Part shown: piece after piece, positions 37,339 to 55,450 of the stretch
Layout: each line of letters begins with the position of its first letter
How positions within the stretch are numbered: the stretch's first letter is position 1
Assembly (NCBI RefSeq): GCF_050920415.1
Contig: NZ_CP169309.1
Length of the DNA stretch: 64,000 bases
Reading direction: 5' to 3' (one strand)
Source of the DNA: Escherichia coli
GTDB lineage: Bacteria > Pseudomonadota > Gammaproteobacteria > Enterobacterales > Enterobacteriaceae
The notes under the pieces: model-generated
Seen by the model: the letters and a program-made list of their open reading frames with translations, nothing else
Told to the model about the DNA's origin: nothing
Databases searched by the model: none
Program-made: the position numbers and the translations under genes

Positions 37339-37485
37339 GAGTGTTCCCTTTGTGGTGTAGGAACCTTAAGGAAACAACATGTTGGGTGGAGCGGACAATC
37401 CAAATGGTGAATTACTGTCTTATATCATTGGCGCTGACATATTCAATTTTTCAACTCATTTTTTTCATAGGGAGGAGTAATTGAC

Positions 37486-38184: not shown

Positions 38185-38192
38185 GTTCGGAA

Positions 38193-39230: not shown

Positions 39231-40993
39231 AAAATCTCCACAATATTGCTGGTATTGGCGGATTCGCCCTGCAGCGGTTCGTTAAACAGTGCGTGCATCG
39301 TTGCCCAGGCCAGATCGGCGTGGCTGGCTTCTTCGCTGCGGCTGGCTTCATAGGTCGGGCGGTTGCCACTGGCGGTGGTGGCGCGACGGATTGCCATAAA
39401 GGACTGCGCTATGTCGGTGTGTCCGGCGTCAAACTCCAGACGGCGGTGGCTGATAATGTCGTAGGCCTTGAGTACCAGGGCGTTTTTAACGTTGGGGTTG
39501 TAGACAAACTCCCGGACGGCAGGAAAAAACGCTTTCACGTTCTCGTAAACCCCGTGACCAACGCCGGTTGAGTCGATACCGATATAGGTCACGTTGTACT
39601 GTTCGGTCAGTTTTTTGATGGCGTCAGCCTGGGCGCGGAAGTCCATTCCGCGCCACTGGTGACGCTCAAGAATGCGGAACTTACCGCCCGGCACGGCTGG
39701 CGGCGCCACCACCACGCATCCGGCGCTGTCGCCGTTCTGCGTACCTTTCGCCGGGTCATATCCGATCCACACTTCGCGCCAGCCAAACGGGCGCAGGGCC
39801 AGTGCATGAAAGTCGGTCCAGACTTCCCAACTGTCCACCATGCACGCCTGCAGCTCGCTGAGCGGGAACACGGACGCGAGATCGTCCACGAACTCGCACA
39901 TCAGCAGGTTCTGGTATTCGTCCGGGCTGTACTCCATGCGCAACTGGTCAAGGTCGAACAGGTTACAGCCGCCGCGCACCGCATCTTCCACGGTGACTAT
40001 CTGGCGGTACTGCCCGTCTGCGCACAGCAGGCCGGGGGCCAGATTGCTGTGGGACAGGTCGATGTCCACCTTATCGGCTTTGTTGCGCCCTCGGTTGAAC
40101 AGCGCACCGGACCAGAACGGATAAGCACTGTGTGTCAGGCTGGATGGCGTGGAAAAATAGGTTTGTCGCCATTTTTTGTGAATAGCCATACCGGAAGCCA
40201 CTTTGCGCAGCTCCTGGAATTTCGGTATCCAGAAATATTCATCCAGATACAGGTTGCCGTGGTAACTCTGGGCCGTGCGGGCATTGGTGCCGAGGAAGTA
40301 AAGCGTGGCCCCGTTAGGAAGCACCATCGGATCGCCTTTCAGCTCCACCTCGACTTCTTTGGCGAAGTCGATGATGTACTGCTTAAAGACGTGGGCCTGT
40401 GCCTTACTGGCGGAAAGGAAAATCTGGTTACGTCCGGTCAGCAGGGCGTCAATCAGGGCTTCACGGGCAAAGTAAAAGGTCGCGCCGATCTGGCGAGACT
40501 TCAGCAGGTTGCGGATGCGATTGGTTTTTCCGGCTTCCCACCAGTGGCGCTGGTAGTTGAACATGGAGGAATGGAAGATTTCTTCCAGCTTCTCAATCTG
40601 TTCATCGGTGAAAACATTCTTTTCCGGCTGACGGCGCGGCCCTTTGTTGCGGTTGGCGACGTTAGGGTTTAAGTCGGCTTCGTTGCCGCCATTGTTAAAC
40701 TTGCCGATCCGCGCGTGGCGCTCCGACTGGCGCGCCAGCAGGTCAATTTCTTTGAAATCTTTCCCTTCTTTGTGCTCCTTCATAATGAGCTGGCAGTAGC
40801 GGGCGGCGGTGGTGAGCTGCATCTGATCCAGCGGCCCATAGTCACCCCACTTGTCGCGTTTTTTCCAGCTGTGAACGGTTGCAACTTTCTCGCCCAGCAT
40901 TTCAGCAATGCGGGCTACGCGGTATCCCTGAAAGTACAGCAGCATGGCCTGCCGACGGGGATCGAGATCTGCGGGTGTCAGTGTGGTGTTCAT
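39227..40993 (-). CDS. P: Terminase large (ATPase) subunit (P2 gpP-like)
   Basis: 588-aa ORF overlapping Q by 4 nt; terminase-like architecture. Confidence 0.85.
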   Translation of the reverse strand: MNTTLTPADLDPRRQAMLLYFQGYRVARIAEMLGEKVATVHSWKKRDKWGDYGPLDQMQLTTAARYCQLIMKEHKEGKDFKEIDLLARQSERHARIGKFNNGGNEADLNPNVANRNKGPRRQPEKNVFTDEQIEKLEEIFHSSMFNYQRHWWEAGKTNRIRNLLKSRQIGATFYFAREALIDALLTGRNQIFLSASKAQAHVFKQYIIDFAKEVEVELKGDPMVLPNGATLYFLGTNARTAQSYHGNLYLDEYFWIPKFQELRKVASGMAIHKKWRQTYFSTPSSLTHSAYPFWSGALFNRGRNKADKVDIDLSHSNLAPGLLCADGQYRQIVTVEDAVRGGCNLFDLDQLRMEYSPDEYQNLLMCEFVDDLASVFPLSELQACMVDSWEVWTDFHALALRPFGWREVWIGYDPAKGTQNGDSAGCVVVAPPAVPGGKFRILERHQWRGMDFRAQADAIKKLTEQYNVTYIGIDSTGVGHGVYENVKAFFPAVREFVYNPNVKNALVLKAYDIISHRRLEFDAGHTDIAQSFMAIRRATTASGNRPTYEASRSEEASHADLAWATMHALFNEPLQGESANTSNIVEIF

Positions 40994-41135
40994 GGCACAA
41001 ACCTACAGCCTTGAATGAAGGCTTTCCCCGCCTGCGGTTTGTGTGGTTGTCGGTACAAATACCGCGCATTGTTTCACTGCCCCCATCACCGCAACCATAA
41101 GGCTCCAGTAAGTTTTTTCTAACGGAGCACGGCTC

Positions 41136-41969
41136 ATGACAGTGAAAGCAAAGCGTTTTCGCATCGGGGTGGAAGGTGCCACTACCGACGGACGCGAAAT
41201 CCAGCGTGAATGGCTGGAACAGATGGCAGCCAGCTACAACCCGGCGGTGTATACCGCGCTGATTAACCTTGAGCACATTAAGTCTTATCTGCCGGACAGC
41301 ACGTTTAACCGCTACGGCAAGGTGACGGCGCTGTTTGCTGAAGAAATCGCGGAAGGTCCGCTGGCAGGCAAGATGGCACTGTATGCCGACGTTGAGCCAA
41401 CGGAGTCCCTGGTGGAACTGGTGAAAAAAGGCCAGAAATTATTCACCTCTATGGAAGTCAGCCCGAAGTTTGCTGATACGGGCAAAGCCTACCTGGTCGG
41501 CCTGGCTGCCACTGATGATCCCGCCAGTCTGGGTACGGAAATGCTGACATTCAGCGCCAGTGCAGCCCATAACCCGCTGGCAAACCGCAAGCAGAATCCT
41601 GCCAATCTTTTTACCGCTGCAGAGGAAACGGTGATCGAACTGGAAGAAATCCAGGAGGACAAGCCGTCCCTGTTTGCCCGCGTCACGGCGCTGTTTACCA
41701 AAAAAGAGCAGTCCGATGACGTCCGGTTCTCTGATGTGCATAAGGCCGTGGAACTGGTCGCCACTGAGCAGCAGAACCTGAGCACGCGCACCGAAAAATC
41801 CCTGTCTGAGCAGGAAGAACGCCTGTCTGAGCTGGAGACTGCTCTGCAGGAGCAGCAAACCGCCTTTAACGAACTGGTGGATAAGCTGAGTCATGAAGAC
41901 AGCCGCCAGGACTACCGCCAGCGTGCAACAGGCGGCAACGCCCCCGCTGACACTCTGACCAATTGCTGA
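41136..41969 (+). CDS. O: Capsid scaffolding protein (P2 gpO-like)
   Basis: 277-aa ORF MTVKAKRFRIGVEGATTDGREIQREWLEQMAASYNP... with acidic coiled-coil C-terminus; first gene of the O-N-M-L operon. Confidence 0.85.
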   Translation: MTVKAKRFRIGVEGATTDGREIQREWLEQMAASYNPAVYTALINLEHIKSYLPDSTFNRYGKVTALFAEEIAEGPLAGKMALYADVEPTESLVELVKKGQKLFTSMEVSPKFADTGKAYLVGLAATDDPASLGTEMLTFSASAAHNPLANRKQNPANLFTAAEETVIELEEIQEDKPSLFARVTALFTKKEQSDDVRFSDVHKAVELVATEQQNLSTRTEKSLSEQEERLSELETALQEQQTAFNELVDKLSHEDSRQDYRQRATGGNAPADTLTNC

Positions 41970-41985
41970 TGGAGCATAAAACCCA

Positions 41986-43044
41986 ATGAAGAAGAATACC
42001 CGTTTTGCTTTTAACGCTTACCTGCAGCAACTGGCGCGTCTGAACGGTGTGGCAGTTGAGGAACTGTCCAGCAAGTTCACCGTAGAGCCGTCTGTGCAGC
42101 AGACGCTGGAAGACCAGATCCAGCAGTCCGCCGCTTTCCTGACGCTGATTAACGTCACGCCAGTGACTGAGCAGTCCGGTCAGCTGCTTGGATTGGGTGT
42201 TGGCAGCACCATTGCCGGAACCACTGACACCACCGCGAAAGAGCGTGAACCTGTCGATCCGACGCTGATGATCGATGTGGAATACAAATGCGAACAGACC
42301 AACTTTGACACGGTGCTGACCTACGCGAAGCTGGACCTGTGGGCGAAGTTTCAGGATTTCCAGGTGCGTATCCGTGACGCCATCGTGAAACGCCAGGCAC
42401 TGGACCGCATCATGATCGGCTTTAACGGCGTGAAGCGTGCGAAAACCTCCAACCGTAGCGAAAACCCGCTGCTGCAGGATGTGAACAAAGGCTGGCTGCA
42501 GAAAATCCGTGAGGATGCACCGGATCACGTCATGGGCAGCACCACCACGGGCGGTGAAACCACACCGGGTGCGGTGAAAGTCGGGAAAGGTGGCGAATAT
42601 GCCAACCTGGACGCCGTGGTGATGGATGCGGTCAATGAGCTTATCGACGTGGTCTACCAGGACGATGACGATCTGGTGGTGATTTGCGGTCGTGAGCTGC
42701 TGTCTGACAAGTATTTCCCGCTGGTCAACAAAGAGCAGGAAAACAGTGAAAAACTGGCTGCCGATATGATCATCAGTCAGAAACGCATGGGTGGCCTGCA
42801 GGCCGTGCGTGCGCCGTTCTTCCCGCCGAATGCGCTGCTGATCACCCGTCTGGATAACCTGTCCATTTACTGGCAGGAAGACACCCGCCGCCGTTCGGTT
42901 ATCGACAACCCGAAACGTGACCGGATTGAAAATTTTGAATCCGTTAACGAAGCCTATGTGGTTGAGGACTACCGCTGCGCCGCACTGGTGGAAAACATCC
43001 AGATTGGCGACTTCAGCGCCGCCGCAGCAGAAACCGGAGCGTAA
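41986..43044 (+). CDS. N: Major capsid protein (P2 gpN-like)
   Basis: 352-aa ORF following scaffold gene. Confidence 0.9.
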   Translation: MKKNTRFAFNAYLQQLARLNGVAVEELSSKFTVEPSVQQTLEDQIQQSAAFLTLINVTPVTEQSGQLLGLGVGSTIAGTTDTTAKEREPVDPTLMIDVEYKCEQTNFDTVLTYAKLDLWAKFQDFQVRIRDAIVKRQALDRIMIGFNGVKRAKTSNRSENPLLQDVNKGWLQKIREDAPDHVMGSTTTGGETTPGAVKVGKGGEYANLDAVVMDAVNELIDVVYQDDDDLVVICGRELLSDKYFPLVNKEQENSEKLAADMIISQKRMGGLQAVRAPFFPPNALLITRLDNLSIYWQEDTRRRSVIDNPKRDRIENFESVNEAYVVEDYRCAALVENIQIGDFSAAAAETGA

Positions 43045-43047
43045 ACC

Positions 43048-43698
43048 ATGAGCCTGAGTCCCGCACGGCAGCATCGCCTGCGCGTTCAGGCTGAACAGGC
43101 CGCCCGCGAGGGCGGCAGCGTTCGCCACGCGTCGGGCTATGACCTGATGCTGCTGCAACTGGCAGAAGACCGCCGCCGTCTCAAGGGCGTTCAGTCCACG
43201 GTCAAAAAAGCGGAAATCAAGGTGGAGCTGCTGCCGAAATACGCCGCCTGGGCGGAGGGTGTCCTGGCTGCCGGAGGCGCTCAACAGGATGACGTGCTGA
43301 TGTACGTGATGCTGTGGCGCATTGATGCCGAAGATTATGTCGGAGCGCTGGAGATCGGGCGTCATGCCCTGCGTCATGGCTGGGTGATGCCGCTGGGTAA
43401 CCGCAACGTGCAGACCGTGCTGGCAGAGGAAATGGCAGACGCAGCGCAGAGCGCAATGCTTGCCACTACCGGCTTTGATGTCGATCTGCTGCTGCAGACG
43501 CTGGAGCTGACAGACGGTCTGGATATGCCGGACCAGTCACGGGCGCGTCTGCATAAAGCGATTGGCGCTGTCCTGAGTGAAAGTAATCCGGCTTCCGCCC
43601 TTAATCATCTCAACCATGCGTTACAGCTCGATCCCCGCTGTGGCGTGAAAAAAGACAAACAGCAGCTGGAGCGCAGACTGCGCAATGACAGCCGCTGA
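43048..43698 (+). CDS. M: Terminase small/endonuclease subunit (P2 gpM-like)
   Basis: 216-aa ORF after major capsid gene. Confidence 0.8.
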   Translation: MSLSPARQHRLRVQAEQAAREGGSVRHASGYDLMLLQLAEDRRRLKGVQSTVKKAEIKVELLPKYAAWAEGVLAAGGAQQDDVLMYVMLWRIDAEDYVGALEIGRHALRHGWVMPLGNRNVQTVLAEEMADAAQSAMLATTGFDVDLLLQTLELTDGLDMPDQSRARLHKAIGAVLSESNPASALNHLNHALQLDPRCGVKKDKQQLERRLRNDSR

Positions 43699-43793
43699 CA
43701 GAACGTGCCCCCGCGCACGGGCGGCACGGGGTGGCGAAAGGCACTGCCACATCAAAACCCCGTCCACCGCCCTTTATTTCAGGAGAAAGCAGC

Positions 43794-44258
43794 ATGAAGT
43801 TTGTTGCGCCAGAACAGGCACCGGAACAGGCGGAAATCATCAGAAATACGCCGTTCTGGCCTGATGTGGACCTGTCGGAGTTTCGCAGTGTCATGCGCAC
43901 TGACGGCACGGTGACGCAGCCGCGTTTAAAGCAGGTTGCGCTGTCGGCAATTTCGGAGGTCAACGCAGAGCTGTATGAGTTTCGCAGACGCCAGCAGATG
44001 CTGGGGTATGCCTCGCTGGCAGAAGTCCCGGCGGAACAACTGGACGGCAAAAGCGAGCGCATTCAGCACTATTTCAACGCGGTTTACTGCTGGGCACGCG
44101 CCATGCTCAACGAACGTTACCAGGACTATGACGCCACGGCATCCGGTGCGAAGCGAGGCGAGGAACTGGCGGAAGCAAGCGGTGATTTATGGCGTGACGC
44201 CCGCTGGGCCATCAGCCGGGTGCAGGATGCGCCGCACTGCACAGTGGAGCTTATCTGA
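43794..44258 (+). CDS. L: Head completion/stabilisation protein (P2 gpL-like)
   Basis: Start at MKFVAPEQAPEQAEIIRNTPFWPDVDL... with AGGAGA RBS (ORF-track Met at 43731 rejected). Confidence 0.8.
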   Translation: MKFVAPEQAPEQAEIIRNTPFWPDVDLSEFRSVMRTDGTVTQPRLKQVALSAISEVNAELYEFRRRQQMLGYASLAEVPAEQLDGKSERIQHYFNAVYCWARAMLNERYQDYDATASGAKRGEELAEASGDLWRDARWAISRVQDAPHCTVELI

Positions 44259-44461
44259 TGAAAGTGCGTGCGCATCAGTATGACACGGTGGACGCACTTT
44301 GCTGGCGTCATTACGGGCGCACGCAGGGTGTCACGGAGCAGGTACTGAAGGCAAATCCGGGGCTTGCCGAATACGGCCCCTTTTTACCTCACGGGCTGCA
44401 GGTGGAGCTGCCGGACATTCCGACAACCACCACCGTGCAGACCGTCCAGCTATGGGACTGA
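44258..44461 (+). CDS. X: Tail protein X (P2 gpX-like, LysM-like)
   Basis: 67-aa ORF MKVRAHQYDTVDALCWRHYGRTQGVTEQVLKANPGLAEYGPFLPHGLQVELPDI... Confidence 0.8.
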   Translation: MKVRAHQYDTVDALCWRHYGRTQGVTEQVLKANPGLAEYGPFLPHGLQVELPDIPTTTTVQTVQLWD

Positions 44462-44464
44462 ATT

Positions 44465-44680
44465 ATGACGCTTGAGCGAATCAGCGCCTTTATCACGTAT
44501 TGCATCGCCGTCGTGCTGGCCTGGCTGGGCGATTTGTCCATCAAGGATGCCTCAACGCTGGGCGGCCTGATGATTGGTGTGCTGATGCTGGCTATCAACT
44601 GGTACTACAAACACAAAGCCTACCAGCTTCTGCGCGACGGGCAGATTTCGCGGGAGGACTATGAATCCATCAATCGTTAA
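44465..44680 (+). CDS. Class II holin / pinholin-like protein (2 TMD)
   Basis: 71-aa ORF with two hydrophobic segments and charged C-terminus, immediately upstream of lysozyme. Confidence 0.6.
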   Translation: MTLERISAFITYCIAVVLAWLGDLSIKDASTLGGLMIGVLMLAINWYYKHKAYQLLRDGQISREDYESINR

Positions 44681-45176
44681 ACGCTGCCTTGTCGGAGCCG
44701 TGCTGGCTATTGCTGCCACGCTGCCGGGGTTTCAGCAGCTTCACACCTCCGTGGAGGGGCTGAAACTGATTGCCGATTACGAAGGTTGTCGTCTGCAGCC
44801 GTATCAGTGCAGCGCGGGTGTCTGGACCGACGGCATTGGAAATACGTCGGGCGTCATTCCCGGCAAAACAATCACGGAACGACAGGCAGCAGAAGGGCTT
44901 ATTTCCAACGTGCTGCGTGTGGAGCGGGCGCTGGAAAGGTGTGTGAAGCAACAGCCGCCGCAGAAGGTATATGACGCTACGGTGTCGTTTGCCTTCAACG
45001 TGGGAACGGGCAATGCCTGCAGTTCTACGCTGGTGAAATTGCTCAATCAGCGGCGCTGGGCAGAAGCGTGCCGACAGTTGCCGCGCTGGGTTTATGTGAA
45101 AGGTGTGTTTAATCAGGGGCTGGATAACCGCCGTGCGCGGGAGATGGCCTGGTGCCTTAAAGGAGCTGGATTATGA
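44661..45176 (+). CDS. Endolysin (lysozyme) with N-terminal SAR/signal-anchor-like segment
   Basis: 171-aa ORF MNPSIVKRCLVGAVLAIAATLP... followed by catalytic EGxxLxxYxD-like motif (VEGLKLIADYEGCRLQPYQ), T4 lysozyme-type. Confidence 0.8.
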   Translation: MNPSIVKRCLVGAVLAIAATLPGFQQLHTSVEGLKLIADYEGCRLQPYQCSAGVWTDGIGNTSGVIPGKTITERQAAEGLISNVLRVERALERCVKQQPPQKVYDATVSFAFNVGTGNACSSTLVKLLNQRRWAEACRQLPRWVYVKGVFNQGLDNRRAREMAWCLKGAGL

Positions 45177-45601
45177 CGCGTGCGCTGGCGGTAGTGGCGG
45201 CGCTGGCACTCGTTGCGCTGGGCTGGCAGTCGTGGCGGCTTAACAGCGCCAGCCACACCATCGAAACGCAGCGCGCGGCGCTGAAAAGTAAAGCGCACGA
45301 ACTAACGAAGAAAAATAGCCAGCTGATCAGTCTGTCCATTCTGGCTGAAACCAATAACAGGGAGCAGGCGCGGCTCTATGCCGAAGCAGAACAGACCAGC
45401 GCGCTGCTGAGACAACGACAACACCGGATCGAGGAACTGAAACGTGAGAACGAGGATTTACGCCGCTGGGCTGATACTCCTTTGCCTGCTGACATTATCC
45501 GGCTGCGGGAACGTCCGGCACTCACCGGAGGTGCAGCTTACCGTCAGTGGTTGTCCGCGAGTGACGCCGTGTCGGCTGGAGCAGGCAGCGCCGCGCACTA
45601 A
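45173..45601 (+). CDS. lysB: Spanin inner-membrane subunit (LysB/Rz-like)
   Basis: 142-aa ORF with N-terminal TMD and coiled-coil. Confidence 0.7.
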   Translation: MTRALAVVAALALVALGWQSWRLNSASHTIETQRAALKSKAHELTKKNSQLISLSILAETNNREQARLYAEAEQTSALLRQRQHRIEELKRENEDLRRWADTPLPADIIRLRERPALTGGAAYRQWLSASDAVSAGAGSAAH

Positions 45602-45734
45602 CGGTGATCTGAACGCATTGCTGGATGAAACGGAGGCCGCCTGGGCGGTCTGTGCAGACAAAGTGGACATGATTATTGCGTGTCAGGAGCGAAACAGTGA
45701 ACAAACCACAATCCCTGCGCCACGCCCTCAATAA
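45444..45734 (+). CDS. lysC: Spanin outer-membrane lipoprotein subunit (LysC/Rz1-like), overlapping lysB in another frame
   Basis: 96-aa ORF MRTRIYAAGLILLCLLTLSGCG... with lipobox LSGC and Pro-rich body. Confidence 0.6.
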   Translation: MRTRIYAAGLILLCLLTLSGCGNVRHSPEVQLTVSGCPRVTPCRLEQAAPRTNGDLNALLDETEAAWAVCADKVDMIIACQERNSEQTTIPAPRPQ

Positions 45735-46128
45735 AGCAGTGCCTTATGTCCGCAATAACCCGGATAAGCTGCATCTGTTTGTGGATAACGGTTCGCTGGT
45801 TGCCACGGGGGCCAGCTCCATGTCATGGGAGTACCGTTATACCCTCAACGTGGTGATTGAGGATTTCAGCGGCGACCAGAATCTGCTGATGGCCCCGGTT
45901 TTGCTGTGGCTGCGTGATAACCAGCCCGATGCCATCAATAATCCGGCGTTACGGGAAAAGTTATTCACCTTTGAGGTGGATATTCTGCGCAACGATGTCT
46001 GTGATATCAGCCTCAACCTGCAACTGACGGAACGTGTGCTGGTCAGCACTGACGGAAGTGTGTCGAGCGTTGAAGCAGTAGCGGAACCCGATGAACCTGA
46101 AGAAATGTGGACGGTGAAACGTGGCTGA
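45697..46128 (+). CDS. R: Tail completion protein (P2 gpR-like)
   Basis: GTG start at 45697 preceded by AGGAG; (M)NKPQSLRHALNKAVPYVRNNPDKLHLFVDNG... fits gpR. Confidence 0.7.
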   Translation: MNKPQSLRHALNKAVPYVRNNPDKLHLFVDNGSLVATGASSMSWEYRYTLNVVIEDFSGDQNLLMAPVLLWLRDNQPDAINNPALREKLFTFEVDILRNDVCDISLNLQLTERVLVSTDGSVSSVEAVAEPDEPEEMWTVKRG

Positions 46129-46573
46129 ACTGCAGAAGGTGGACGACTGGCTGAGTGCTTTGCTGGCGAATCTGGAACCAGCCGCAAGAAGCCGAATGAT
46201 GCGCCAGCTGGCGCAGGAACTGCGCCGGACACAGCAGCAGAATATCAGGATGCAGCGCAATCCAGATGGCAGCAGTTATGAGCCGCGCAGGGTAACAGCA
46301 CGCAGCAAGAAGGGGCGCATCAAACGTCAGATGTTTGCAAAGCTGCGCACCACAAAATACCTGAGAACTGCCGCCAGCGCGGATTCTGCCAGCGTACAGT
46401 TTGAAGGTAAGGTACAGCGTATTGCCCGTGTTCATCACTACGGTCTGCGCGATCGCGTCAGTCCAAAGGGGGGAGTCATTAAGTATCCATCCCGAAAATT
46501 GCTGGGTTTAAATGAACATACTGAAAATGAAGTAAGAGATTTACTTTTAAAGTATTTATTGATGAAAAATTAG
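46121..46573 (+). CDS. S: Tail completion protein (P2 gpS-like)
   Basis: 150-aa ORF overlapping R by 8 nt. Confidence 0.8.
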   Translation: MAELQKVDDWLSALLANLEPAARSRMMRQLAQELRRTQQQNIRMQRNPDGSSYEPRRVTARSKKGRIKRQMFAKLRTTKYLRTAASADSASVQFEGKVQRIARVHHYGLRDRVSPKGGVIKYPSRKLLGLNEHTENEVRDLLLKYLLMKN

Positions 46574-46578
46574 AATGT

Positions 46579-47109
46579 TTACGCTCTTAATAAACTTAAA
46601 TAACTTTTTATGCTTTGGCAAAAAGGGAAAAGGTCTATTTTAATTTTCCAGTTTTTTTTGTTTTGAACCCCAGAAGCAATAATAGAACCGTCCCAATATT
46701 TTATTCCATTTTTGCCGGTCTTTTTTGTTAACTCAAAACTTAATGCGTGAATAATTTTATTGCAGCATTCGCGTATAGAATCTTTAACATGACCATCTAT
46801 AACAAAAAGTATATTTTCATGTTCTTCAAATGCTTCTTTCTCAGGTGAGTAATCTGGGTTCCACTCATGTTCACTAGTGTCTTGGAGAATTCGTAGTTTT
46901 GTACAAAGGCTAATAAGATTGTTGCTAATGGTATATTCCAACCATCCGTTGTACGATAACTCCTCCATTTCAAATTCAGTTACTATAGAACCATCATATA
47001 CTTTCTGTGTGGAATATATACGCTGTAAATAAAATTCAGATGAACAGCATAATTGCTCAATTATTCTTGCGTGTTCTTCTATAGCGTAATAATCAATTGG
47101 ATGGCTCAT
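46579..47109 (-). CDS. Hypothetical protein, AT-rich cargo gene in the P2 orf30 position (between S and V, opposite strand)
   Basis: 176 aa from Met preceded by AAAGGT RBS (ORF-track start at 47148 would overlap gene V); strongly AT-biased. Confidence 0.55.
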   Translation of the reverse strand: MSHPIDYYAIEEHARIIEQLCCSSEFYLQRIYSTQKVYDGSIVTEFEMEELSYNGWLEYTISNNLISLCTKLRILQDTSEHEWNPDYSPEKEAFEEHENILFVIDGHVKDSIRECCNKIIHALSFELTKKTGKNGIKYWDGSIIASGVQNKKNWKIKIDLFPFCQSIKSYLSLLRA

Positions 47110-47204
47110 TCTTTTACCTTTCTTTGATTGGAATTGTATTTGTGTCATTTACCACACAAGGACGTATTGATGCCATAGATTCAAGGTCCGTGCAACCTAA
47201 CCCT

Positions 47205-47783
47205 ATGAACGCACAACTAACCGAAATCATGCGCCTTATCACCAACCTGATCCGCACTGGTGTAGTCACCGAAGTGGACCGGGAAAACTGGCTTTGCCGG
47301 GTTAAAACGGGCGAGCTTGAAACCAACTGGATCAGCTGGCTGACGCTGCGTGCCGGGAATGCCCGCACATGGTGGCGACCATCGGAAGGTGAGCAGGTGG
47401 TGCTGCTGAGTCTGGGCGGCAATCTGGAAACTGCCTTTGCGCTGCCCGCTGTCTATTCGAATCAGTTCGCACCACCGTCGACGTCGGCAGACGCCTGCGT
47501 GACAGAACATCCTGACGGCGGCTGGTTTGAATACGAACCCACTACCGGGCGCTGGTATGTCAGGGGCATCAAATCAATGGTCATTGAGGCCGCTGACAAC
47601 ATCACCATGAAAACCAGTGAGTTTGTACTGGAGGCTGACCGCACGCGCATTAACAGCGAAGTGGTGATCAATGGTGGCGTTACCCAGGGCGGCGGAGCGA
47701 TGAGTTCTAACGGGATCGTGGTTGATGCGCATCAGCATACTGACGTCCTGAAAGGCGGCGACACAACCGGAGGCCCGGTATGA
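47205..47783 (+). CDS. V: Baseplate spike protein (P2 gpV-like)
   Basis: Start at MNAQLTEIMRLITNLIRTGVVTEVDRENWLCRVKTGELETNWISWLTLRAGNARTWW... matches the gpV N-terminal pattern. Confidence 0.85.
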   Translation: MNAQLTEIMRLITNLIRTGVVTEVDRENWLCRVKTGELETNWISWLTLRAGNARTWWRPSEGEQVVLLSLGGNLETAFALPAVYSNQFAPPSTSADACVTEHPDGGWFEYEPTTGRWYVRGIKSMVIEAADNITMKTSEFVLEADRTRINSEVVINGGVTQGGGAMSSNGIVVDAHQHTDVLKGGDTTGGPV

Positions 47784-48139
47784 CGCTTTATAGCGGGATG
47801 AACAATACCAGCGGTAAAGCCATTACTGATATTGATCATCTGCGCCAGTCGGTGCGGGACATTTTGCTGACGCCGCAGGGTAGCCGCATTGCCCGTCGGG
47901 AATATGGTTCCCTGCTGTCGGCACTGATAGACCAGCCACAAAATCCGGCATTACGCCTGCAGGTCATGTCGGCAGTGTATGTGGCGCTGAGTCGCTGGGA
48001 GCCACGGCTGACGCTGGATTCCATCACCATTAACAGCAATTTTGACGGTTCAATGGTGGTGGAGCTGACCGGGCGGCGTAATAACGGTGTGCCTGTTTCC
48101 CTTTCCGTATCAACAGGAGCAGAGAATGGCAGTGATTGA
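47780..48139 (+). CDS. W: Baseplate protein (P2 gpW-like)
   Basis: 119-aa ORF overlapping V by 4 nt. Confidence 0.85.
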   Translation: MTLYSGMNNTSGKAITDIDHLRQSVRDILLTPQGSRIARREYGSLLSALIDQPQNPALRLQVMSAVYVALSRWEPRLTLDSITINSNFDGSMVVELTGRRNNGVPVSLSVSTGAENGSD

Positions 48140-49034
48140 CCTTTCGCAGTTGCCTGCGCCGCAGATTGTGGATGTGCCGGACTTTGAGACGCTGCTTGCC
48201 GAACGCAAGGCAGAATTTGTGGCGCTTCATCCGAAAGATGAGCAGGAAGCAGTGATCCGCACGCTGGAACTGGAATCTGAACCCGTCACCAAATTGTTGC
48301 AGGAGAATGCTTACCGTGAGTTGCTTCTGCGCCAGCGCATTAACGAAGCCGCGCAGGCGGTGATGGTGGCTTATGCCATAGGGGGCGATCTGGACCAGCT
48401 CGCCGCCAACTACAACGTGAAACGCCTGACGGTGACGCCTGCTGATAATGACGCTGTGCCGCCCGTTGCAGCTGTGATGGAAAGCGATGAAGCGTTACGC
48501 CTGCGTGTGCCTGCAGCCTTTGAAGGGCTTTCAGTTGCGGGGCCAACTGCAGCTTATGAATTTCATGCCCGAAGCGCCGACGGTCGGGTGGCGGATGCCA
48601 GTGCAACCAGCCCAGCACCTGCAGAGGTGGTGCTGACTGTCCTTAGCCGCGAAGGCGATGGAACTGCAGAAAAAGACCTGCTGGACGTGGTGAAAAAAGC
48701 TCTGAACAGTGAGAACGTCCGCCCGGTGGCTGACCGTCTTACGGTTCGCAGCGCAGAAATCATCCCGTATCGCGTGGAAGCCACCATTTTTCTCTATCCG
48801 GGACCGGAAGCAGAGCCGGTAATGGCAGCGGCAAAAGCCAGTCTGCAGAAGTACATTGCCAGCCAGACGAGGCTTGGTCGGGATATTCGCCGTAGCGCCA
48901 TCTTTGCTGCTCTGCATGTTGAGGGTGTTCAACGTGTGGAACTGGCTTCTCCGCTGGCGGATGTGGTCCTGAACAAAACACAGGCGGCATCATGTACGCA
49001 GTGGAGCGTAACCAACGGAGGAACGGATGAATAG
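48126..49034 (+). CDS. J: Baseplate protein (P2 gpJ-like)
   Basis: Start at MAVIDLSQLPAPQIVDVPDFETLLAERKAEFVALHPKDEQ... (302 aa). Confidence 0.9.
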   Translation: MAVIDLSQLPAPQIVDVPDFETLLAERKAEFVALHPKDEQEAVIRTLELESEPVTKLLQENAYRELLLRQRINEAAQAVMVAYAIGGDLDQLAANYNVKRLTVTPADNDAVPPVAAVMESDEALRLRVPAAFEGLSVAGPTAAYEFHARSADGRVADASATSPAPAEVVLTVLSREGDGTAEKDLLDVVKKALNSENVRPVADRLTVRSAEIIPYRVEATIFLYPGPEAEPVMAAAKASLQKYIASQTRLGRDIRRSAIFAALHVEGVQRVELASPLADVVLNKTQAASCTQWSVTNGGTDE

Positions 49035-49632
49035 TCTGCTGCCACCGGGTTCAACTTCACTGGAGCGCCGACTGGCGCAAACCTGTAGCGGGATTTCTGA
49101 TCTGCAGGTGCCGCTGCGTGACTTGTGGAATCCGGCTACCTGTCCGGTCAGCTTCCTGCCTTATCTCGCCTGGGCGTTCTCTGTGGATCGCTGGGACGAG
49201 GGCTGGACAGAAAGCGTCAAACGCCAGGTAGTGAAGGATGCTTTTTATATTCATCAGCATAAAGGAACTACCAGTGCCGTGCGGCGGGTGGTGGAACCGT
49301 TCGGATTCCTGATCCGCATTATTGAGTGGTGGCAGACCGGAGAAACACCGGGCACGTTTCGCCTGGATATCGGCGTGCAGGACCAGGGCATCACTGAAGA
49401 TACCTATCTGGAACTTGAGCGGCTGATAAGCGATGCCAAACCATGTAGCCGTCACATGATCGGCATGTCCATCAATCTGCAGACCAGCGGTCCGCATTGG
49501 GTGGGGGCCGCCAGCTATCTTGGCGAAGAAATCACGATCTATCCGTATATCAACGAAACAATTATTTCCGGCGGCACCGCGCATGAAGGCGGGGCGGTCC
49601 ATGTTATTGACACAATGAGAGTGAATCCATGA
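49027..49632 (+). CDS. I: Tail/baseplate protein (P2 gpI-like)
   Basis: 201-aa ORF ...LWNPATCPVSFLPYLAWAFSVDRWDEGW... matches the gpI signature. Confidence 0.85.
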   Translation: MNSLLPPGSTSLERRLAQTCSGISDLQVPLRDLWNPATCPVSFLPYLAWAFSVDRWDEGWTESVKRQVVKDAFYIHQHKGTTSAVRRVVEPFGFLIRIIEWWQTGETPGTFRLDIGVQDQGITEDTYLELERLISDAKPCSRHMIGMSINLQTSGPHWVGAASYLGEEITIYPYINETIISGGTAHEGGAVHVIDTMRVNP

Positions 49633-51026
49633 GCACAAAATTTTATACCCTGCTGACGGATATTGGCGCGGCGAAACTTGCCAGCGCCGCCGCGCTCGGT
49701 GTGCCGCTAAAAATTACCCATATGGCGGTGGGCGATGGCGGCGGAACATTGCCAACGCCGGACGCCAAGCAGACAGCATTGGTAAATGAGAAACGCCGGG
49801 CTGCGCTGAATATGCTCTATATCGACCCGCAGAACAGCAGCCAGATTATTGCTGAACAGGTGATCCCTGAAAACGAGGGCGGTTGGTGGATACGTGAAGT
49901 GGGCCTGTTTGATGAGTCCGGGGCATTGATTGCCGTGGGCAACTGCCCGGAAAGCTATAAGCCGCAACTGGCTGAAGGCAGCGGGCGTACCCAGACCGTG
50001 CGCATGGTGCTGATTACCAGCAGCACGGACAATATCACCCTGAAAATCGACCCTGCCGTAGTGCTGGCAACCCGCAAGTATGTGGATGACAAGGTACTGG
50101 AGCTGAAGGTGTACGTGGATGATCAGATGGCAAAACATCTTGCCGCACCGGACCCGCATTCACAGTATGCACCCAAAGAAAGTCCGACGTTTACCGGGAC
50201 ACCAAAAGCGCCAACTCCAGCGGCAGGGAATAACACCACGCAGGTTGCGACCACCGCGTTTGTTCAGGCGGCACTGACGGCTCTTATTAATGGTGCGCCA
50301 GCCACGCTGGACACGCTGAAAGAAATAGCCGCAGCCATTAACAATGATCCGAATTTCAGTACCACCATTAACAATGCGCTGGCACTGAAAGCGCCGTTGT
50401 CGAGTCCGGCACTCACCGGAACGCCAACAGCCCCCACTGCTGCACAGTCGGTCAACAATACACAGATTGCCACCACGGCTTTTGTGAAATCGGCGATTGC
50501 AGCAATGGTAGGTTCTGCACCTGCGGCACTGGATACACTGAACGAACTGGCGTCGGCGTTGGGGAATGATCCGAACTTTGCCACGACAATGCTTAATGCG
50601 CTGGCAGGTAAACAACCGCTGGACAATACGCTGACTAATTTGAGTGGAAAGGATGTCGCTGGTCTTCTCGCATACCTTGGTTTGGGGGAATTGGCTCTGG
50701 CTGGCGCAACAACCGGCGCTATGTTGGTGAATGGGTATGTAGCAATTCCATTAATTATTTCTGGCGTTCGGAGACCACTTATTATCCAGTGGGGAGTGGG
50801 GCAGTTTGGGGGAAGTCTGGGGGATGATGCGGGATATTTAAACAATTTCCCTTTCGCTTTTCCGTCGGCGTGCTACGTGATGGTTGCCAGCCACGTGGGG
50901 CATACACCTTCGGGTGCCGGAATACTATCTGCTTCCGCAATCACAAAAAGCGGCTTTCGTGGTTTTTCCAGCGTAGTGACTGCCGCAAATCCTGTATCGG
51001 GCTGTTATGTTGCTATAGGAGGGTGA
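49629..51026 (+). CDS. H: Tail fibre protein (gpH-like), C-terminal part encoded within invertible segment
   Basis: 465-aa ORF; conserved N-terminal tail-fibre region, crossover site at 50665-50690 inside the gene. Confidence 0.85.
   Translation: MSTKFYTLLTDIGAAKLASAAALGVPLKITHMAVGDGGGTLPTPDAKQTALVNEKRRAALNMLYIDPQNSSQIIAEQVIPENEGGWWIREVGLFDESGALIAVGNCPESYKPQLAEGSGRTQTVRMVLITSSTDNITLKIDPAVVLATRKYVDDKVLELKVYVDDQMAKHLAAPDPHSQYAPKESPTFTGTPKAPTPAAGNNTTQVATTAFVQAALTALINGAPATLDTLKEIAAAINNDPNFSTTINNALALKAPLSSPALTGTPTAPTAAQSVNNTQIATTAFVKSAIAAMVGSAPAALDTLNELASALGNDPNFATTMLNALAGKQPLDNTLTNLSGKDVAGLLAYLGLGELALAGATTGAMLVNGYVAIPLIISGVRRPLIIQWGVGQFGGSLGDDAGYLNNFPFAFPSACYVMVASHVGHTPSGAGILSASAITKSGFRGFSSVVTAANPVSGCYVAIGG
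50665..50690. promoter_or_regulatory. Left recombination site of invertible segment (gix/pix-like)
   Basis: TTCTCGCATACCTTGGTTTGGGGGAA matches the reverse complement of the right site in about 20 of 26 positions. Confidence 0.55.
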
Positions 51027-51027
51027 T

Positions 51028-51462
51028 GTGTTTTTTAGTCCATCTTTAAATATTTTTGTGAATCCTGCGCTTAAGGATGACTACATCAATGTAAATTCAT
51101 GGCCAGATGATGCTGTTGAAGTTGATGAGCAGGTGTATATTGAGTTTTCCGGATTACCGCCGAAAGGAAAAATCCGTATCGCTGGGGAAAATGGTTTTCC
51201 TGCATGGTCTGAAATTCCACCACCAACGCATGAGGAACAGATTGCCGCAGCCGAATTGAAAAAACAGCAATTGATTAATCAGTCCAACGAATATATGAAT
51301 ACCAAGCAATGGCCTGGTAAAGCGGCTATTGGTCGTCTGAAAGGTGAGGAACTGGCGCAATATAATTTGTGGCTGGATTATCTGGACGCACTGGAACTGG
51401 TTGATACCTCCAGTGCTCCAGATATTGAATGGCCTACGCCTCCGGCAGTTCAGGCCAGATGA
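51028..51462 (+). CDS. G: Tail fibre assembly chaperone (gpG/U-like), current orientation
   Basis: 144-aa ORF directly after H. Confidence 0.7.
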   Translation: MFFSPSLNIFVNPALKDDYINVNSWPDDAVEVDEQVYIEFSGLPPKGKIRIAGENGFPAWSEIPPPTHEEQIAAAELKKQQLINQSNEYMNTKQWPGKAAIGRLKGEELAQYNLWLDYLDALELVDTSSAPDIEWPTPPAVQAR

Positions 51463-52027
51463 CATCCGGCGCGGTGCTCGTATCTGTTGCCGTCACCGCG
51501 TCAATGTAATCAAGCACGGCGTTAAGCCGGGTGGTTTCTGCCTGCGTCAGCTTCCGCCCGGCCTGTAATTTCAGCTGAATCAGACTGATGGAAGCCATTG
51601 CAGCATCAATCAGTGACTGGCGCTGTGCTTCTGCCGCTTCTACTGCGGCACCGTGTTGTGCCTCAGTATCTGTCACCCATTTCTCACCATCCCATTTATC
51701 GTATGGCGTTAACGGTGAAAGCGTGACATAACCGTCTTTGATGGCACCGATATAATCCACTGTAACAGCAGCACCATTTTCGATTGAGTAAACAGTCTCA
51801 TTGCGATGGTCTTCTTCATGGCTCCATCCCTTACCTGTAAATACTGCCACTCTTCCCGGAATGTTTTCGCCAGGGTCAATACCAGTTGAACAGGCGGGCA
51901 TACTTACGCCAGTATTAATATATTCATCAGACCAGCCCGTATACTCAGATGTTTCAGCATCATAATAAAAACAACGCATATCACCCGGCACTGTAGCCAG
52001 CCCATTTTCATCAAAAACAGGTTTCAT
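51434..52027 (-). CDS. Alternative tail fibre assembly chaperone (inverted-orientation copy)
   Basis: 197-aa minus-strand ORF inside the invertible segment, downstream of the alternative fibre tip. Confidence 0.65.
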   Translation of the reverse strand: MKPVFDENGLATVPGDMRCFYYDAETSEYTGWSDEYINTGVSMPACSTGIDPGENIPGRVAVFTGKGWSHEEDHRNETVYSIENGAAVTVDYIGAIKDGYVTLSPLTPYDKWDGEKWVTDTEAQHGAAVEAAEAQRQSLIDAAMASISLIQLKLQAGRKLTQAETTRLNAVLDYIDAVTATDTSTAPDVIWPELPEA

Positions 52028-52533
52028 TATGCAGCCCTCACAATATAATTAAAGGCGATGTTACGTGGACGGTTTTCATTAGCTGTTGGCACGACACGAG
52101 AGGCGTCGAATCCAAGGTCATCGGTTTTGTCTATAGTAGTTGTGTTATTCGGCATTCTCGCTGATCGTGTTCCTGCATCGTAAAAAGCCCCTCTGATTGC
52201 ATCAAAAGACATACCGATCCCGCCATCTGCGAATCCCTCAATATTTCTTATTGCATCCCCCTGTGAAGATAATAATTGTCGCCCGGCATCCACTCCACGT
52301 CCGTCATCCCAGCCACGAATAAATTCACCGCGTAAATCAGGCAATTTATTTTTCGGATAAACCTTTGCCAGTTCCGGGTATTCTTCAGCAGAAAAAGCCG
52401 CACCGTTGCATTTCAGCCAGCCAGTAGGCGGTGTGGCTGAAGGCCACGGAACAGGCACACCAACGGGTAATGCTGAACCTTCTCCCAAACCAACGTTTAT
52501 GAAAATGCAGAGATAACGGCTAACTGGCATCAT
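52027..52533 (-). CDS. Alternative tail fibre C-terminal segment (expressed only after inversion)
   Basis: 168-aa minus-strand ORF that reads through the right crossover site; would fuse to the constant part of H after inversion. Confidence 0.6.
   Translation of the reverse strand: MMPVSRYLCIFINVGLGEGSALPVGVPVPWPSATPPTGWLKCNGAAFSAEEYPELAKVYPKNKLPDLRGEFIRGWDDGRGVDAGRQLLSSQGDAIRNIEGFADGGIGMSFDAIRGAFYDAGTRSARMPNNTTTIDKTDDLGFDASRVVPTANENRPRNIAFNYIVRAA
52480..52505. promoter_or_regulatory. Right recombination site of invertible segment (gix/pix-like)
   Basis: TTCTCCCAAACCAACGTTTATGAAAA, inverted relative to the left site. Confidence 0.55.
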
Positions 52534-52560
52534 CTCCGGTTTTTATTCAGGGGGATGATC

Positions 52561-53127
52561 ATGCTTATTGGCTATGTACGCGTGTCAACAAATGACCAGA
52601 ACACCGATTTGCAACGTAATGCACTGAACTGCGCGGGATGTGAGCGGATTTTTGAGGATAAAATCAGTGGCACTAAGTCCGACAGACCGGGGCTGAAAAA
52701 GCTGCTCAGGACACTATCGGCAGGAGACACGCTGGTTGTCTGGAAGCTGGACAGGTTGGGGCGCAGTATGCGGCATCTTGTTACGCTGATAGAGGAGTTG
52801 CGCCAGCGTGGTGTGAATTTCCGAAGCCTGACTGACAGTATTGATACCAGTACCCCAATGGGCCGTTTCTTTTTTCATGTCATGGGTGCCCTGGCTGAAA
52901 TGGAACGCGAACTGATAGTTGAACGTACCAGGGCAGGGCTGGCTGCAGCTCGTGCCAAAGGCAGAGTAGGTGGACGCCGTCCTAAGTTGACCACCGAACA
53001 GTGGGCACAGATTGGGCGTTTACTCGAGGCCGGAGAATCAAGACAGCGTATTGCACTGATTTTTGATGTGGGTGTTTCCACAATTTATAGAAAATTTCCG
53101 GCAAATAAGAGTAATGAATCCCCCTGA
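52561..53127 (+). CDS. pin: Site-specific DNA invertase (serine recombinase, Pin/Gin/Hin family)
   Basis: MLIGYVRVSTNDQNTDLQRNAL... with catalytic Ser (VRVSTNDQ) and C-terminal HTH; adjacent to invertible segment. Confidence 0.9.
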   Translation: MLIGYVRVSTNDQNTDLQRNALNCAGCERIFEDKISGTKSDRPGLKKLLRTLSAGDTLVVWKLDRLGRSMRHLVTLIEELRQRGVNFRSLTDSIDTSTPMGRFFFHVMGALAEMERELIVERTRAGLAAARAKGRVGGRRPKLTTEQWAQIGRLLEAGESRQRIALIFDVGVSTIYRKFPANKSNESP

Positions 53128-53269
53128 ATCAGCATTATTTTGATTATCCCTGCAAGTAGACAAATACCGTCATTTTGTGTGAATAACGGTACAACTGCGC
53201 TTAGCTGTTTGTCAGGCACAATCACTTCAACATAGGGCGAAGCCTAATCCAATCAGGAGGTTCGCCACT

Positions 53270-54442
53270 ATGGCTCAGGATTACCACCACGGGGTGCGCG
53301 TTGTTGAAGTCAACGAAGGCACCCGATCCATTACCACGGTGAGCACCGCCATCGTGGGCATGGTCTGCACGGGCGATGATGCCGATGCAAAAATGTTTCC
53401 TCTTAACAAACCTGTGCTGATCACTGATGTGCTGACTGCCAGCGGTAAAGCGGGTGAGTCCGGCACGCTGGCCCGTTCGCTGGATGCCATCGCTGACCAG
53501 GCAAAACCCGTGACCGTTGTTGTGCGTGTGCCGCAGGGTGAAACGGAAGAAGAAACCACGACCAATATCATCGGCGCAGTGACTGCTGAAGGTAAAAAAA
53601 CAGGCATGAAAGCTCTGTTATCTGCCCAGTCACAGCTCGGCGTTAAACCGCGCATTCTCGGCGTGCCAGGTCACGATAACAAAGCCGTTGCGACTGAGTT
53701 GCTGAGCGTGGCGCAAAGCCTGCGTGGGTTTGCTTACCTGTCAGCGTATGGCTGCAAGACGGTACAGGAGGCGATCACTTACCGTGAAAACTTCAGCCAG
53801 CGCGAAGGAATGCTGATCTGGCCCGACTTTACTGGCTGGGACACGGTGCTGAATGCCGAAGCAACGGCATATGCCACCGCCCGTGCACTTGGTCTGCGTG
53901 CCAAAATTGATGAGCAGACCGGGTGGCACAAAAGCCTGTCCAACGTGGGCGTGAACGGTGTCACCGGAATTTCTGCAGATGTGTTCTGGGATCTGCAGGA
54001 CCCGGCAACCGATGCAGGTCTGCTGAACCAGAACGACGTCACCACGCTTGTGCGTAAAGACGGTTTCCGCTTCTGGGGTTCCCGCTGTCTGAGCGATGAT
54101 CCGCTTTTTGCCTTCGAAAACTACACCCGCACGGCGCAGGTGCTGACGGACACAATGGCAGAAGCACACATGTGGGCGGTGGATAAACCGCTTAACCCGT
54201 CGCTGGCCCGCGACATTATCGAAGGTATCCGCGCCAAAATACGCAGCCTGGTCAGTCAGGGCTATCTCATTGGTGGTGATTGCTGGCTGGATGAGTCGGT
54301 GAACGACAAAGACACGCTGAAAGCCGGAAAACTCACCATCGACTATGACTACACGCCAGTGCCGCCACTTGAAAATCTGATGCTGCGCCAGCGCATCACC
54401 GATCAGTACCTGGTGAATTTCGCCAGCCAGGTCAGCGCGTAA
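53270..54442 (+). CDS. FI: Contractile tail sheath protein (P2 gpFI-like)
   Basis: 390-aa [38 protein letters not shown]... Confidence 0.9.
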
Positions 54443-54451
54443 GGGGACAAC

Positions 54452-54967
54452 ATGGCTTTACCACGCAAATTAAAACATCTGAACCTGTTTAACGACGGGA
54501 ACAACTGGCAGGGGATCGTTGAGTCGCTGACGCTGCCGAAATTCACCCGCAAATATGAGAAGTATCGCGGCGGCGGAATGCCGGGTGCAGTGGATGTGGA
54601 TCTGGGGCTTGATGACAGTGCGCTGGACACAGAATTTTCCATTGGTGGTACTGAACTGCTGCTGTTTAAGCAGATGGGCAAAGCCACGGTAGATGGCATT
54701 CAGCTGCGCTTTACCGGCTCTATCCAGCGTGACGATACCGGGGAAGTGCAGGCCGTGGAGCTTGTGGTGCGTGGACGTCACAAAGAAGTGGATTCCGGCG
54801 AGTGGAAGACGGGCGAAAGCAACACCACCAAAGTGACCAGTACCAACAGCTACGCGAAGCTGACCATCAATGGTGAGGTGCTCTATGAAGTGGACCTTAT
54901 CAACATGGTGGAAATTGTGGACGGTGTGGACCTGATGGAAGCGCACCGCAACGCCCTCGGCCTCTGA
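54452..54967 (+). CDS. FII: Tail tube protein (P2 gpFII-like)
   Basis: 171-aa ORF after sheath gene. Confidence 0.9.
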   Translation: MALPRKLKHLNLFNDGNNWQGIVESLTLPKFTRKYEKYRGGGMPGAVDVDLGLDDSALDTEFSIGGTELLLFKQMGKATVDGIQLRFTGSIQRDDTGEVQAVELVVRGRHKEVDSGEWKTGESNTTKVTSTNSYAKLTINGEVLYEVDLINMVEIVDGVDLMEAHRNALGL

Positions 54968-55021
54968 TGTATCTGAACGGCGCGGGATACCGCGCCAGAA
55001 CCCAATTTACAGGACAGCAAA

Positions 55022-55324: not shown

Positions 55325-55450
55325 CGGTTGACGATCTGGTGGCTGATATCGCCACCATCTTTCACTGGCCGCCATCCGTTACTGACGTTATGCCGCTGAC
55401 CGAAGTGCTGGAATGGCGGTATAAAGCGATTCAGAGAAGCGGGGCCAACG

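Follow-up and report, generated by a model that had tools for sequence, protein, structure and literature searches.

Gene content of the gpS–gpV slot

The window analysed in this work is a stretch of 64,000 nucleotides from Escherichia coli (NCBI RefSeq assembly GCF_050920415.1, contig NZ_CP169309.1). It carries the late region of a P2-family prophage, and in the tail gene operon, between homologues of gpS and gpV, a single gene is found on the opposite strand. We refer to it as the cargo gene. The features of the locus, by position in the window, are the following:

46121..46573, plus strand: gpS homologue (virion morphogenesis / tail completion; Phage_tail_S family), the left border of the slot
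46471..46573, plus strand: AT-rich 3' end of gpS, its last ~34 codons (...GGVIKYPSRKLLGLNEHTENEVRDLLLKYLLMKN), delimited by alignment
46471..47191: low-GC replaced segment, that is, the exchanged module (GC 0.32), delimited by alignment with an empty-slot relative
46579..47109, minus strand: cargo coding sequence (CDS), 176 aa (ORF listing; RefSeq WP_000019234.1; CARTA_14 / LF82_787 in LF82; family PHROG 18838)
47110..47125, minus strand: translation initiation region AAAGAAAGGTAAAAGA, read from the sequence
47133..47138, minus strand: candidate −10 hexamer TACAAT of the cargo promoter, picked by eye only
47141..47158, plus strand: TGT-N12-ACA dyad TGTGTCATTTACCACACA, ~55 nt upstream of the V start, read from the sequence
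47205..47783, plus strand: gpV homologue (baseplate assembly protein V; Phage_base_V family), the right border of the slot

The gpS and cargo genes are convergent and their stop codons lie 5 nt apart. A sequence-only reading of this DNA had described an antisense ORF of 176 aa with low GC content in the tail operon, placed where P2 carries orf30. The ORF listing and the RefSeq form of the protein agree with this description, and so does the composition, GC being 0.32 as compared to about 0.57 in the flanks. Specifically, GC content is 0.28–0.35 over ~46500–47200 and 0.53–0.62 on either side, while the cargo CDS has a GC content of 0.32 as compared to 0.56–0.58 for the neighbouring late genes. 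The position is also that of orf30, with gpS and gpV as flanks and the same relative strand.

The extent of the inserted unit has to be corrected. The ORF is indeed inserted, as had been proposed, but it is not the whole of what was exchanged. We aligned the window with Escherichia phage 500465-1, a relative with an empty slot and an S–V spacer of 68 bp. Homology ends at ~46470 and restarts at ~47192, which gives an exchanged module of ~720 bp (~46471–47191) where the empty-slot relative has ~150 bp. Besides the cargo gene, the module covers the 3'-terminal ~34 codons of gpS and the stretch that precedes V. The variant gpS tail (IKYPSRKLLG...) also accompanies homologous cargo in Enterobacter and Salmonella prophages. 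Since the S tail travels together with the cargo, the data point to recombination inside S and shortly before V as the means of exchange.

The TGT-N12-ACA dyad is retained in every allele examined, empty or occupied. It is presumably the Ogr/B-type late-activator site of the V promoter, judging from the P2/186 late-promoter consensus. In the P2 annotation an activator site is found at the equivalent place.

Comparison of the S–V region across P2-like phages gave these alleles of the slot:

Empty: 538 E. coli genomes, and many Klebsiella, Salmonella and Yersinia phages (judged by span)
Cartapus-type, 21 E. coli genomes: cargo gene, 176 aa, minus strand, GC 0.32
P2: orf30, 261 aa, minus strand, GC 0.34
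SEN8: FRG-domain gene, 311 aa, minus strand, GC 0.38
RE-2010: unrelated gene, 283 aa, minus strand, GC 0.35

All occupants are thus single genes of low GC content on the minus strand, and the one in SEN8 matches the PADLOC candidate defence family PDC-S15 (E 3e-31). The gpS–gpV slot is a dispensable, variable accessory slot and serves as a one-gene exchange site. Because closely related phages carry the slot empty, the cargo gene is not a conserved structural gene.

As for the prophage itself, its late region (37435–50690) is 99.9% identical to that of Cartapus, a Fels-2-like Peduoviridae prophage integrated next to ssrA in the Crohn's-disease isolate LF82. The window differs from LF82 at 34260–37435 (replication genes to the portal gene), in the tail-fibre region (50690–52479) and in the early and integrase regions. 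Around the ORF, 901 bp are shared at 100% identity with LF82 and ten further complete E. coli genomes. Of 5426 E. coli genomes, 21 carry the cargo gene and about 1000 the flanks.

Start codon, selection and transcription of the cargo gene

The longest frame at the locus is 46579..47148 on the minus strand (189 aa), and an in-frame ATG at 47109 gives the form of 176 aa. RefSeq calls this shorter form, the hypothetical protein WP_000019234.1, in the identical DNA of LF82 (L001 20180..20710), where the gene carries the name CARTA_14 of phage Cartapus. We favour the 176-aa start for three reasons: its N-terminus MSHPI (MxHxI) is kept in family members of many taxa, a Shine-Dalgarno core AAGG (47120–47117) precedes the ATG at 47109 by 7 nt, and use of the ATG at 47148 would put the start codon within the TGT-N12-ACA dyad of the late promoter region of V. 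The gene thus has the ribosome-binding site of its own that had been noticed in the raw sequence.

A promoter is harder to assign. The consensus scan of the cargo (minus) strand found no sigma-70 promoter and no terminator, and the candidate −10 hexamer TACAAT is not kept at the locus of the Salmonella homologue. The hexamer abuts the late-activator dyad, so the promoters of the cargo gene and of V probably overlap back-to-back.

The cargo gene is under purifying selection. dN/dS is 0.11 and 0.09 as compared to homologues at 84% and 74% identity, respectively, with an overall range of 0.08–0.11. When 1.84 billion cluster representatives were searched exhaustively with phmmer, 93 clusters were obtained at E<=1e-3, nearly all of them with proteins of 170–210 aa. 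Together these data indicate a real gene and not a chance ORF.

Transcription could be followed in published strand-specific RNA-seq of LF82 (Misson et al. 2023, PMC9928086, S1 Table), where expression is given as log2(5+fpkm) for two replicates with a floor of 2.32. According to the table legend, B1 and B6 stand for DMEM and MB1 for macrophages at the early time point. The CARTA_14 values of the two replicates are:

LB, stationary phase (BLB): 3.51 / 2.71
B1: 5.06 / 5.16
B6: 5.89 / 5.97
Macrophages, early (MB1): 5.11 / 5.28
Macrophages, 6 h (MB6): 4.57 / 4.38

The flanking S and V genes are at 2.3–3.3, except V in MB6 (4.05–4.34), which is about equal to CARTA_14 there; in LB stationary phase CARTA_14 itself is at background (PMC9928086). 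A signal from the cargo gene with silent flanking late genes indicates transcription of its own in the lysogen. The cargo gene is transcribed autonomously in the LF82 lysogen, at a low and condition-dependent level, and the concern that the ORF might not be expressed is thereby removed. It is important to note that the authors of that study screened the LB data only, and CARTA_14 is absent from their list of morons (PMC9928086). One moron on that list, LF82_789, was at first suspected to be the cargo gene; this was rejected, the cargo gene being LF82_787 / CARTA_14.

The slot position, opposite strand, variability of the slot, deviant GC content and transcription in the lysogen are all those of a P2-type moron. 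We conclude that the cargo gene is a horizontally acquired single-gene accessory module (moron) in the gpS–gpV slot of a P2-family prophage.

Protein family, predicted fold and genomic neighbourhoods

The cargo gene encodes a soluble protein of 176 aa whose family is unannotated in all libraries queried. Its sole match in PHROGs is family 18838, of unknown function, and no match was obtained in Pfam, NCBIfam, PADLOC or the sequences of the PDB. The same holds for its relatives. Pfam finds no domain in any of 79 family members, NCBIfam has no match for ten distant members, and PADLOC-DB v2.0.0 gives 0 families both for the query (E<=1) and for the ten distant members (E<=10). Searches of PDB chains with the single sequence and with a 79-sequence profile gave chance matches only at E<=10. 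A profile search of a 5.8-billion-protein set returned unannotated family members only, with no annotated distant relatives, and Foldseek against AFDB50 returned solely 'uncharacterized' members of the family from many genera. A literature search by protein accession found nothing on the cargo protein, and the papers on P2 hotspots that were consulted do not treat the gene.

By eye, no recognisable motif had been seen in the protein. This does not hold once the family is aligned. In an alignment of 79 diverse members R113, N117, K118 and H121 are invariant, and R73, G141, G147 and W154 are near-invariant. The core motif of the family is [ST]-[IL]-R-E-x-C-N-K-I-I-H-A, which in the query reads R113-E-C-C-N117-K118-I-I-H121, so that R-x3-N-K-x2-H is its invariant part. 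Such a constellation of R, N, K and H suggests catalysis and not mere binding. The AlphaFold model of the protein is compact and confident (pLDDT 90.3, pTM 0.86). It has predicted helices at 7–21, 24–34, 45–78 and 89–95, a strand at 101–105 followed by a short motif helix at 112–120, and a predicted three-stranded antiparallel sheet at 124–159 followed by the final helix at 160–175. R113, N117 and H121, being at positions i, i+4 and i+8, would point to the same side of the motif helix.

We also considered whether the protein belongs to the HEPN superfamily, which we took as Pfam clan CL0291 plus the families of Anantharaman et al. 2013. There, HEPN is defined by Rx4-6H at the beginning of a core helix, the R being followed at once by a polar residue (Anantharaman et al. 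2013). The spacing in the cargo family is R-x7-H and falls outside this definition. R-x3-N-K-x2-H is one helical turn longer than the HEPN motif. The cargo family and DUF4145 share the spacings [RK]-x3-N-x3-H and R-x3-D, and a protein of the latter family, which we used for comparison, is encoded elsewhere in the same prophage. Membership in a DUF4145-like HEPN family was dropped: hhalign was never significant when run with the single DUF4145 protein and with an alignment of 41 sequences (probability below 1%), in local, greedy and global modes, DUF4145 being the only HEPN family compared this way. Because of the R-x7-H spacing and the non-significant DUF4145 profile comparison we do not file the protein as a HEPN member. 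Its modelled shape is nevertheless suggestively HEPN-like and its invariant residues are RNase-like, recurrence of a fold being no proof. As compared to the HEPN families AbiU2, Cthe_2314, pEK499_p136, DUF4145 and the integron-cassette HEPN (PDB 3jrt), the cargo family differs in having no Pfam match among 79 members and in having a beta-meander insertion after the motif helix.

The family is found well beyond E. coli. Homologues with 58–84% identity occupy the same S–V slot in Salmonella, Enterobacter and other enterobacterial P2-like prophages. A member with 29% identity lies directly after a gpD-like tail gene on a metagenomic P2-like contig, which is a different slot. In 100,044 species genomes, 68 loci were located by a pattern scan, and these are distributed over Gamma-, Alpha- and Betaproteobacteria, Bacteroidota, Cyanobacteria, Chloroflexota, Nitrospirae, Planctomycetota, Desulfobacterota, one Firmicute and one Methanosarcinales archaeon. 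All-against-all clustering of the genes within 5 kb at 63 loci revealed no partner gene, no neighbour being common to more than three loci. The cargo gene is a self-contained unit. We also looked for signs of a toxin-antitoxin arrangement in the module of the window, but it has no tandem repeats, no inverted repeats of note and no Rfam match.

In Aliivibrio and Vibrio the family members are single-ORF integron cassettes, with attC-type repeats on both sides in three loci (L012, L014, L031). At L012, for example, the gene (7920–8456) lies between repeats at 7772–7903 and 8466–8597; at L015 solely an upstream copy of the attC repeat abuts the gene. The copy in the window is not in an integron, and its module has no attC-like repeats. 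The Vibrionaceae cassette members stand beside cassettes matching Lit and PD-T4-7. Among 30 same-strand genes immediately upstream of family members, Pfam recognised NERD, Mrr_cat, CAP12/Pycsar TIR, YLATT, HEPN_Toprim_N, YaaC, Peptidase_U49 (Lit) and NA-iREase1, and several of the 30 are housekeeping enzymes. PADLOC, applied to ten of these upstream genes picked by eye, reported Lit, dGTPase, type IV restriction, PD-T4-7 and, weakly, a PglW-like NERD protein; it also assigned a TIR/PDC-S35 gene located 14 nt upstream of another family member. The defence-type neighbours are to be read as an association and not as a statistic. As judged from these loci, the family moves among P2-like prophage slots, integron cassettes and defence islands.

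Proposed function and comparison with known systems

The explanation that we find best as a whole, and to which we give about an even chance, is that the cargo gene is a moron that acts on its own in phage exclusion, possibly as a HEPN-like RNase. Taken by itself, a defence role of the protein seems to us slightly favoured, the support for it being one of association with defence-type genes. The RNase mechanism specifically, which is drawn from the predicted fold and the motif, is a tentative proposal about which we have some doubt. The cargo protein would be a self-sufficient phage-exclusion or abortive-infection effector that shields the lysogen from other phages. Its catalytic centre would be the R113-x3-N117-K118-x2-H121 face of the short helix, probably together with R73 of the long helix, on a HEPN-like bundle. 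The activity would most likely be that of a metal-independent endoribonuclease, inactive at rest until a component of a phage activates it. The C-terminal part (124–175), comprising the three-stranded sheet and the last helix with G141, G147 and W154, may then serve as a sensing or oligomerisation element. Such a solo, latent and trigger-activated design follows the same logic as HepS of prophage Gifsy-1.

Other explanations have to be weighed as well. The gene could be a host-adaptation moron without a role in phage defence, for example an RNA- or protein-binding regulator that aids the lysogen in particular environments. The condition-dependent LF82 transcript, at background in LB and exceeding the flanking genes ~6–12-fold in the columns for DMEM and macrophages, would suit such a function, as would the lack of a defence-database match and the housekeeping genes among the neighbours of the family. 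We consider this unlikely, because the patchy occurrence of the family in many phyla and an archaeon, in integrons and prophage slots and beside defence genes, is the pattern of conflict genes and not of adaptation to a niche, and invariant residues that suggest catalysis are less expected of a binding protein. Both integron arrays and prophages are known carriers of toxin-antitoxin cassettes (PMC3710099; bioRxiv 10.1101/2024.07.02.601686) and the predicted fold may resemble that of HEPN toxins, so one may think of an addiction or stabilisation toxin that keeps the prophage or cassette from being lost, its antidote being a host factor or a small RNA that has escaped recognition. No conserved adjacent gene is seen in the 63 loci, the module has no ToxI-kind tandem or inverted repeats and no Rfam match, and attC sites bound the single-gene cassettes so tightly that no room is left for a partner; all of this makes an addiction toxin improbable.

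We would give an equally small chance to an accessory gene that benefits the phage itself through counter-defence, modulation of the host for its own lytic growth or competition with P4-like satellites. The location inside the late region, directly abutting the activator site of the V late promoter, would be in line with such a role, and a few P2-like phages do carry anti-defence genes (bioRxiv 10.64898/2026.02.27.708500). However, the cargo gene runs counter to the late operons and its transcript is seen in the lysogen without induction, and most family members are found in non-phage chromosomal contexts and integron cassettes, where anti-defence makes little sense. Anti-defence systems were reported in just 28 of 1511 P2-like prophages (bioRxiv 10.64898/2026.02.27.708500). 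The possibility of a decaying or functionless remnant, carried along by recombination, draws on the low expression and on the absence of annotation anywhere. It is contradicted by the low dN/dS values, by the conservation of full length and invariant residues across phyla and by the confident compact fold, and in our opinion it is very improbable indeed.

Returning to the phage-exclusion explanation, its most general form concerns the whole family. It is conceivable, and we state it with reservation, that PHROG 18838 is an unrecognised family of stand-alone anti-phage nucleases with a non-canonical helix motif R-x3-N-K-x2-H and a small beta-meander sensor, which shuttles as one gene among the third (gpS–gpV) slot of P2-like prophages, the post-gpD slot, Vibrionaceae integron cassettes and the defence islands of many bacterial phyla and an archaeon. 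Should the protein be a trigger-activated RNase whose motif is non-canonical, the sequence definition used for detecting HEPN-type effectors would be widened. If the protein has no role in defence, it adds one more uncharacterised prophage moron. It was already known that P2-like phages carry AT-rich and often defensive morons, and the slot itself was known as well. New are the unannotated family and a candidate single-gene defence protein of prophages. A compact family of 176-aa type, present across many phyla and having four catalytic-looking invariant residues, is a candidate minimal defence protein. The old/tin and Z/fun hotspots have yielded many validated defence systems and the gpS–gpV (orf30) slot has been little studied; the family found here gives a reason for mining it systematically.

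The P2 prophage expresses the genes old, tin and fun, by which other phages are excluded. They sit in two other, well-studied hotspots of P2, as compared to the gpS–gpV slot of the cargo gene. P2 morons in general are foreign, AT-rich and dispensable for phage growth, and the cargo gene resembles them in this. The closest parallel by position is orf30 of P2, a nonessential gene that shares with the cargo gene the gpS–gpV slot, the relative strand and the low GC content (0.34). Kinship between the two proteins was rejected, the best BLASTP hit having E 0.22 over 27 residues, as had been expected from the sequence. Orf30 has no PADLOC match. In the literature consulted, the main defence hotspots of P2 are the A-portal (old/tin) and Z/fun loci, and a 2026 preprint describes further defence loci of P2-like phages 'downstream of GpL' and within the late genes (bioRxiv 10.64898/2026.02.27.708500).

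Outside P2-like phages, two systems are relevant. Esos is an anti-phage integron cassette of V. cholerae with a HEPN-like domain only (bioRxiv 10.1101/2024.07.02.601686). The Aliivibrio and Vibrio members of the cargo family are likewise single-gene and attC-bounded, as are anti-phage integron cassettes of Vibrio such as Esos, to which they are likened by description only. The second system, and the closest precedent in function, is HepS (Sargen et al., Nature 2026, PMC13043305), a solo HEPN abortive-infection protein encoded in an accessory slot of prophage Gifsy-1. It is constitutively expressed, stays inactive until a tail-tip protein is bound and then cleaves tRNA anticodon loops (PMC13043305). 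Homology to HepS was not found, the cargo family having no detectable sequence relation to any PDB chain at E<=10 save chance matches. The motifs differ, since HepS has the canonical R100-x4-H105 and in the cargo family a three-stranded sheet comes after R-x3-N-K-x2-H (R-x7-H); the host phages differ too, Gifsy-1 being lambdoid and the phage of the cargo gene P2-like. What the two have in common is that each is a single protein with no partner, encoded in an accessory slot of a prophage and expressed in the lysogen.

Relationship of the prophage to Cartapus

Comparison of window 24955-64000 with the Cartapus locus of E. coli LF82 (L001) shows two related prophages with a mosaic pattern of similarity. 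They are 99.9% identical across 37435-50690, 99.0% across 52479-64000, 94% in the early genes (28569-34260) and 87% around the repressor/integrase region. Two segments, 34260-37435 and the tail-fibre/invertase segment at 50690-52479, have no match in this comparison.

Other accessory genes of the prophage

The following features of the window lie outside the S-V slot:

37486-38184 (+): gene for a DUF4145 (HEPN-clan) protein, with the replication genes on one side and the portal gene on the other
~35375-37338 (-): IS21-family element fragments in the old/tin hotspot
36640-37338 (-): IstA-like ORF
35375-36171 (-): IstB-like pieces with a GPPGVGKTH Walker motif
~60421-60903 (-; equivalent to L001 33738-34220, -): CARTA_32, 160 aa, 'putative exonuclease', between ogr and ssrA

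The site of the DUF4145 gene is the classical old/tin hotspot. The gene product has an N-terminal zinc ribbon and a conserved K-x3-N-x3-H motif, and PADLOC matches it weakly to PD-T7-4 (E 1e-6). The identical LF82 gene, CARTA_1, rises on the log2 scale from ~4.7 in LB to ~9.6 in macrophages according to the LF82 RNA-seq data (PMC9928086). Assignment to the IS21 family was made by eye, from translations only. In LF82 this part of the hotspot holds other genes, CARTA_46/47, of which CARTA_47 (LF82_789) is labelled 'moron'. CARTA_32 has the highest expression among the Cartapus morons in LF82, 15 times background, and is matched weakly in PADLOC by PDC-S48 (E 2e-7) and by the C-terminus of SspE.

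Occupants of the S-V slot and the end of gene S

In related phages the gap between tail genes S and V holds other genes:

SEN8 (L081) 784-1719 (-): FRG-domain protein, matching PADLOC candidate PDC-S15
P2 (L005) 1940-2725 (-): orf30
RE-2010 (L082) 768-1619 (-): slot occupant

PADLOC gave no match for P2 Orf30 or for the RE-2010 occupant. S is an essential tail gene, and its final ~34 codons (window 46471-46573, +) belong to the AT-rich exchanged module. This S tail is unlike that of empty-slot relatives, so every cargo carries its own S C-terminus.

Family members beside defence-type genes

At L009 257-1923, a distant homologue of the cargo gene lies 14 nt downstream of the gene for a 365-aa CAP12/Pycsar-type TIR protein, which matches PDC-S35 in PADLOC (E 9e-83). 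The same layout is found on a second contig (L010), and in this lineage the pair may form a two-gene system. Two integron arrays carry other proteins directly upstream of the family cassette:

Aliivibrio (L012) 6655-7785: Lit-like Peptidase_U49 protein cassette
Vibrio (L015) 7008-7886: PD-T4-7-like protein cassette

Both arrangements agree with the reported storage of anti-phage genes in chromosomal integrons.
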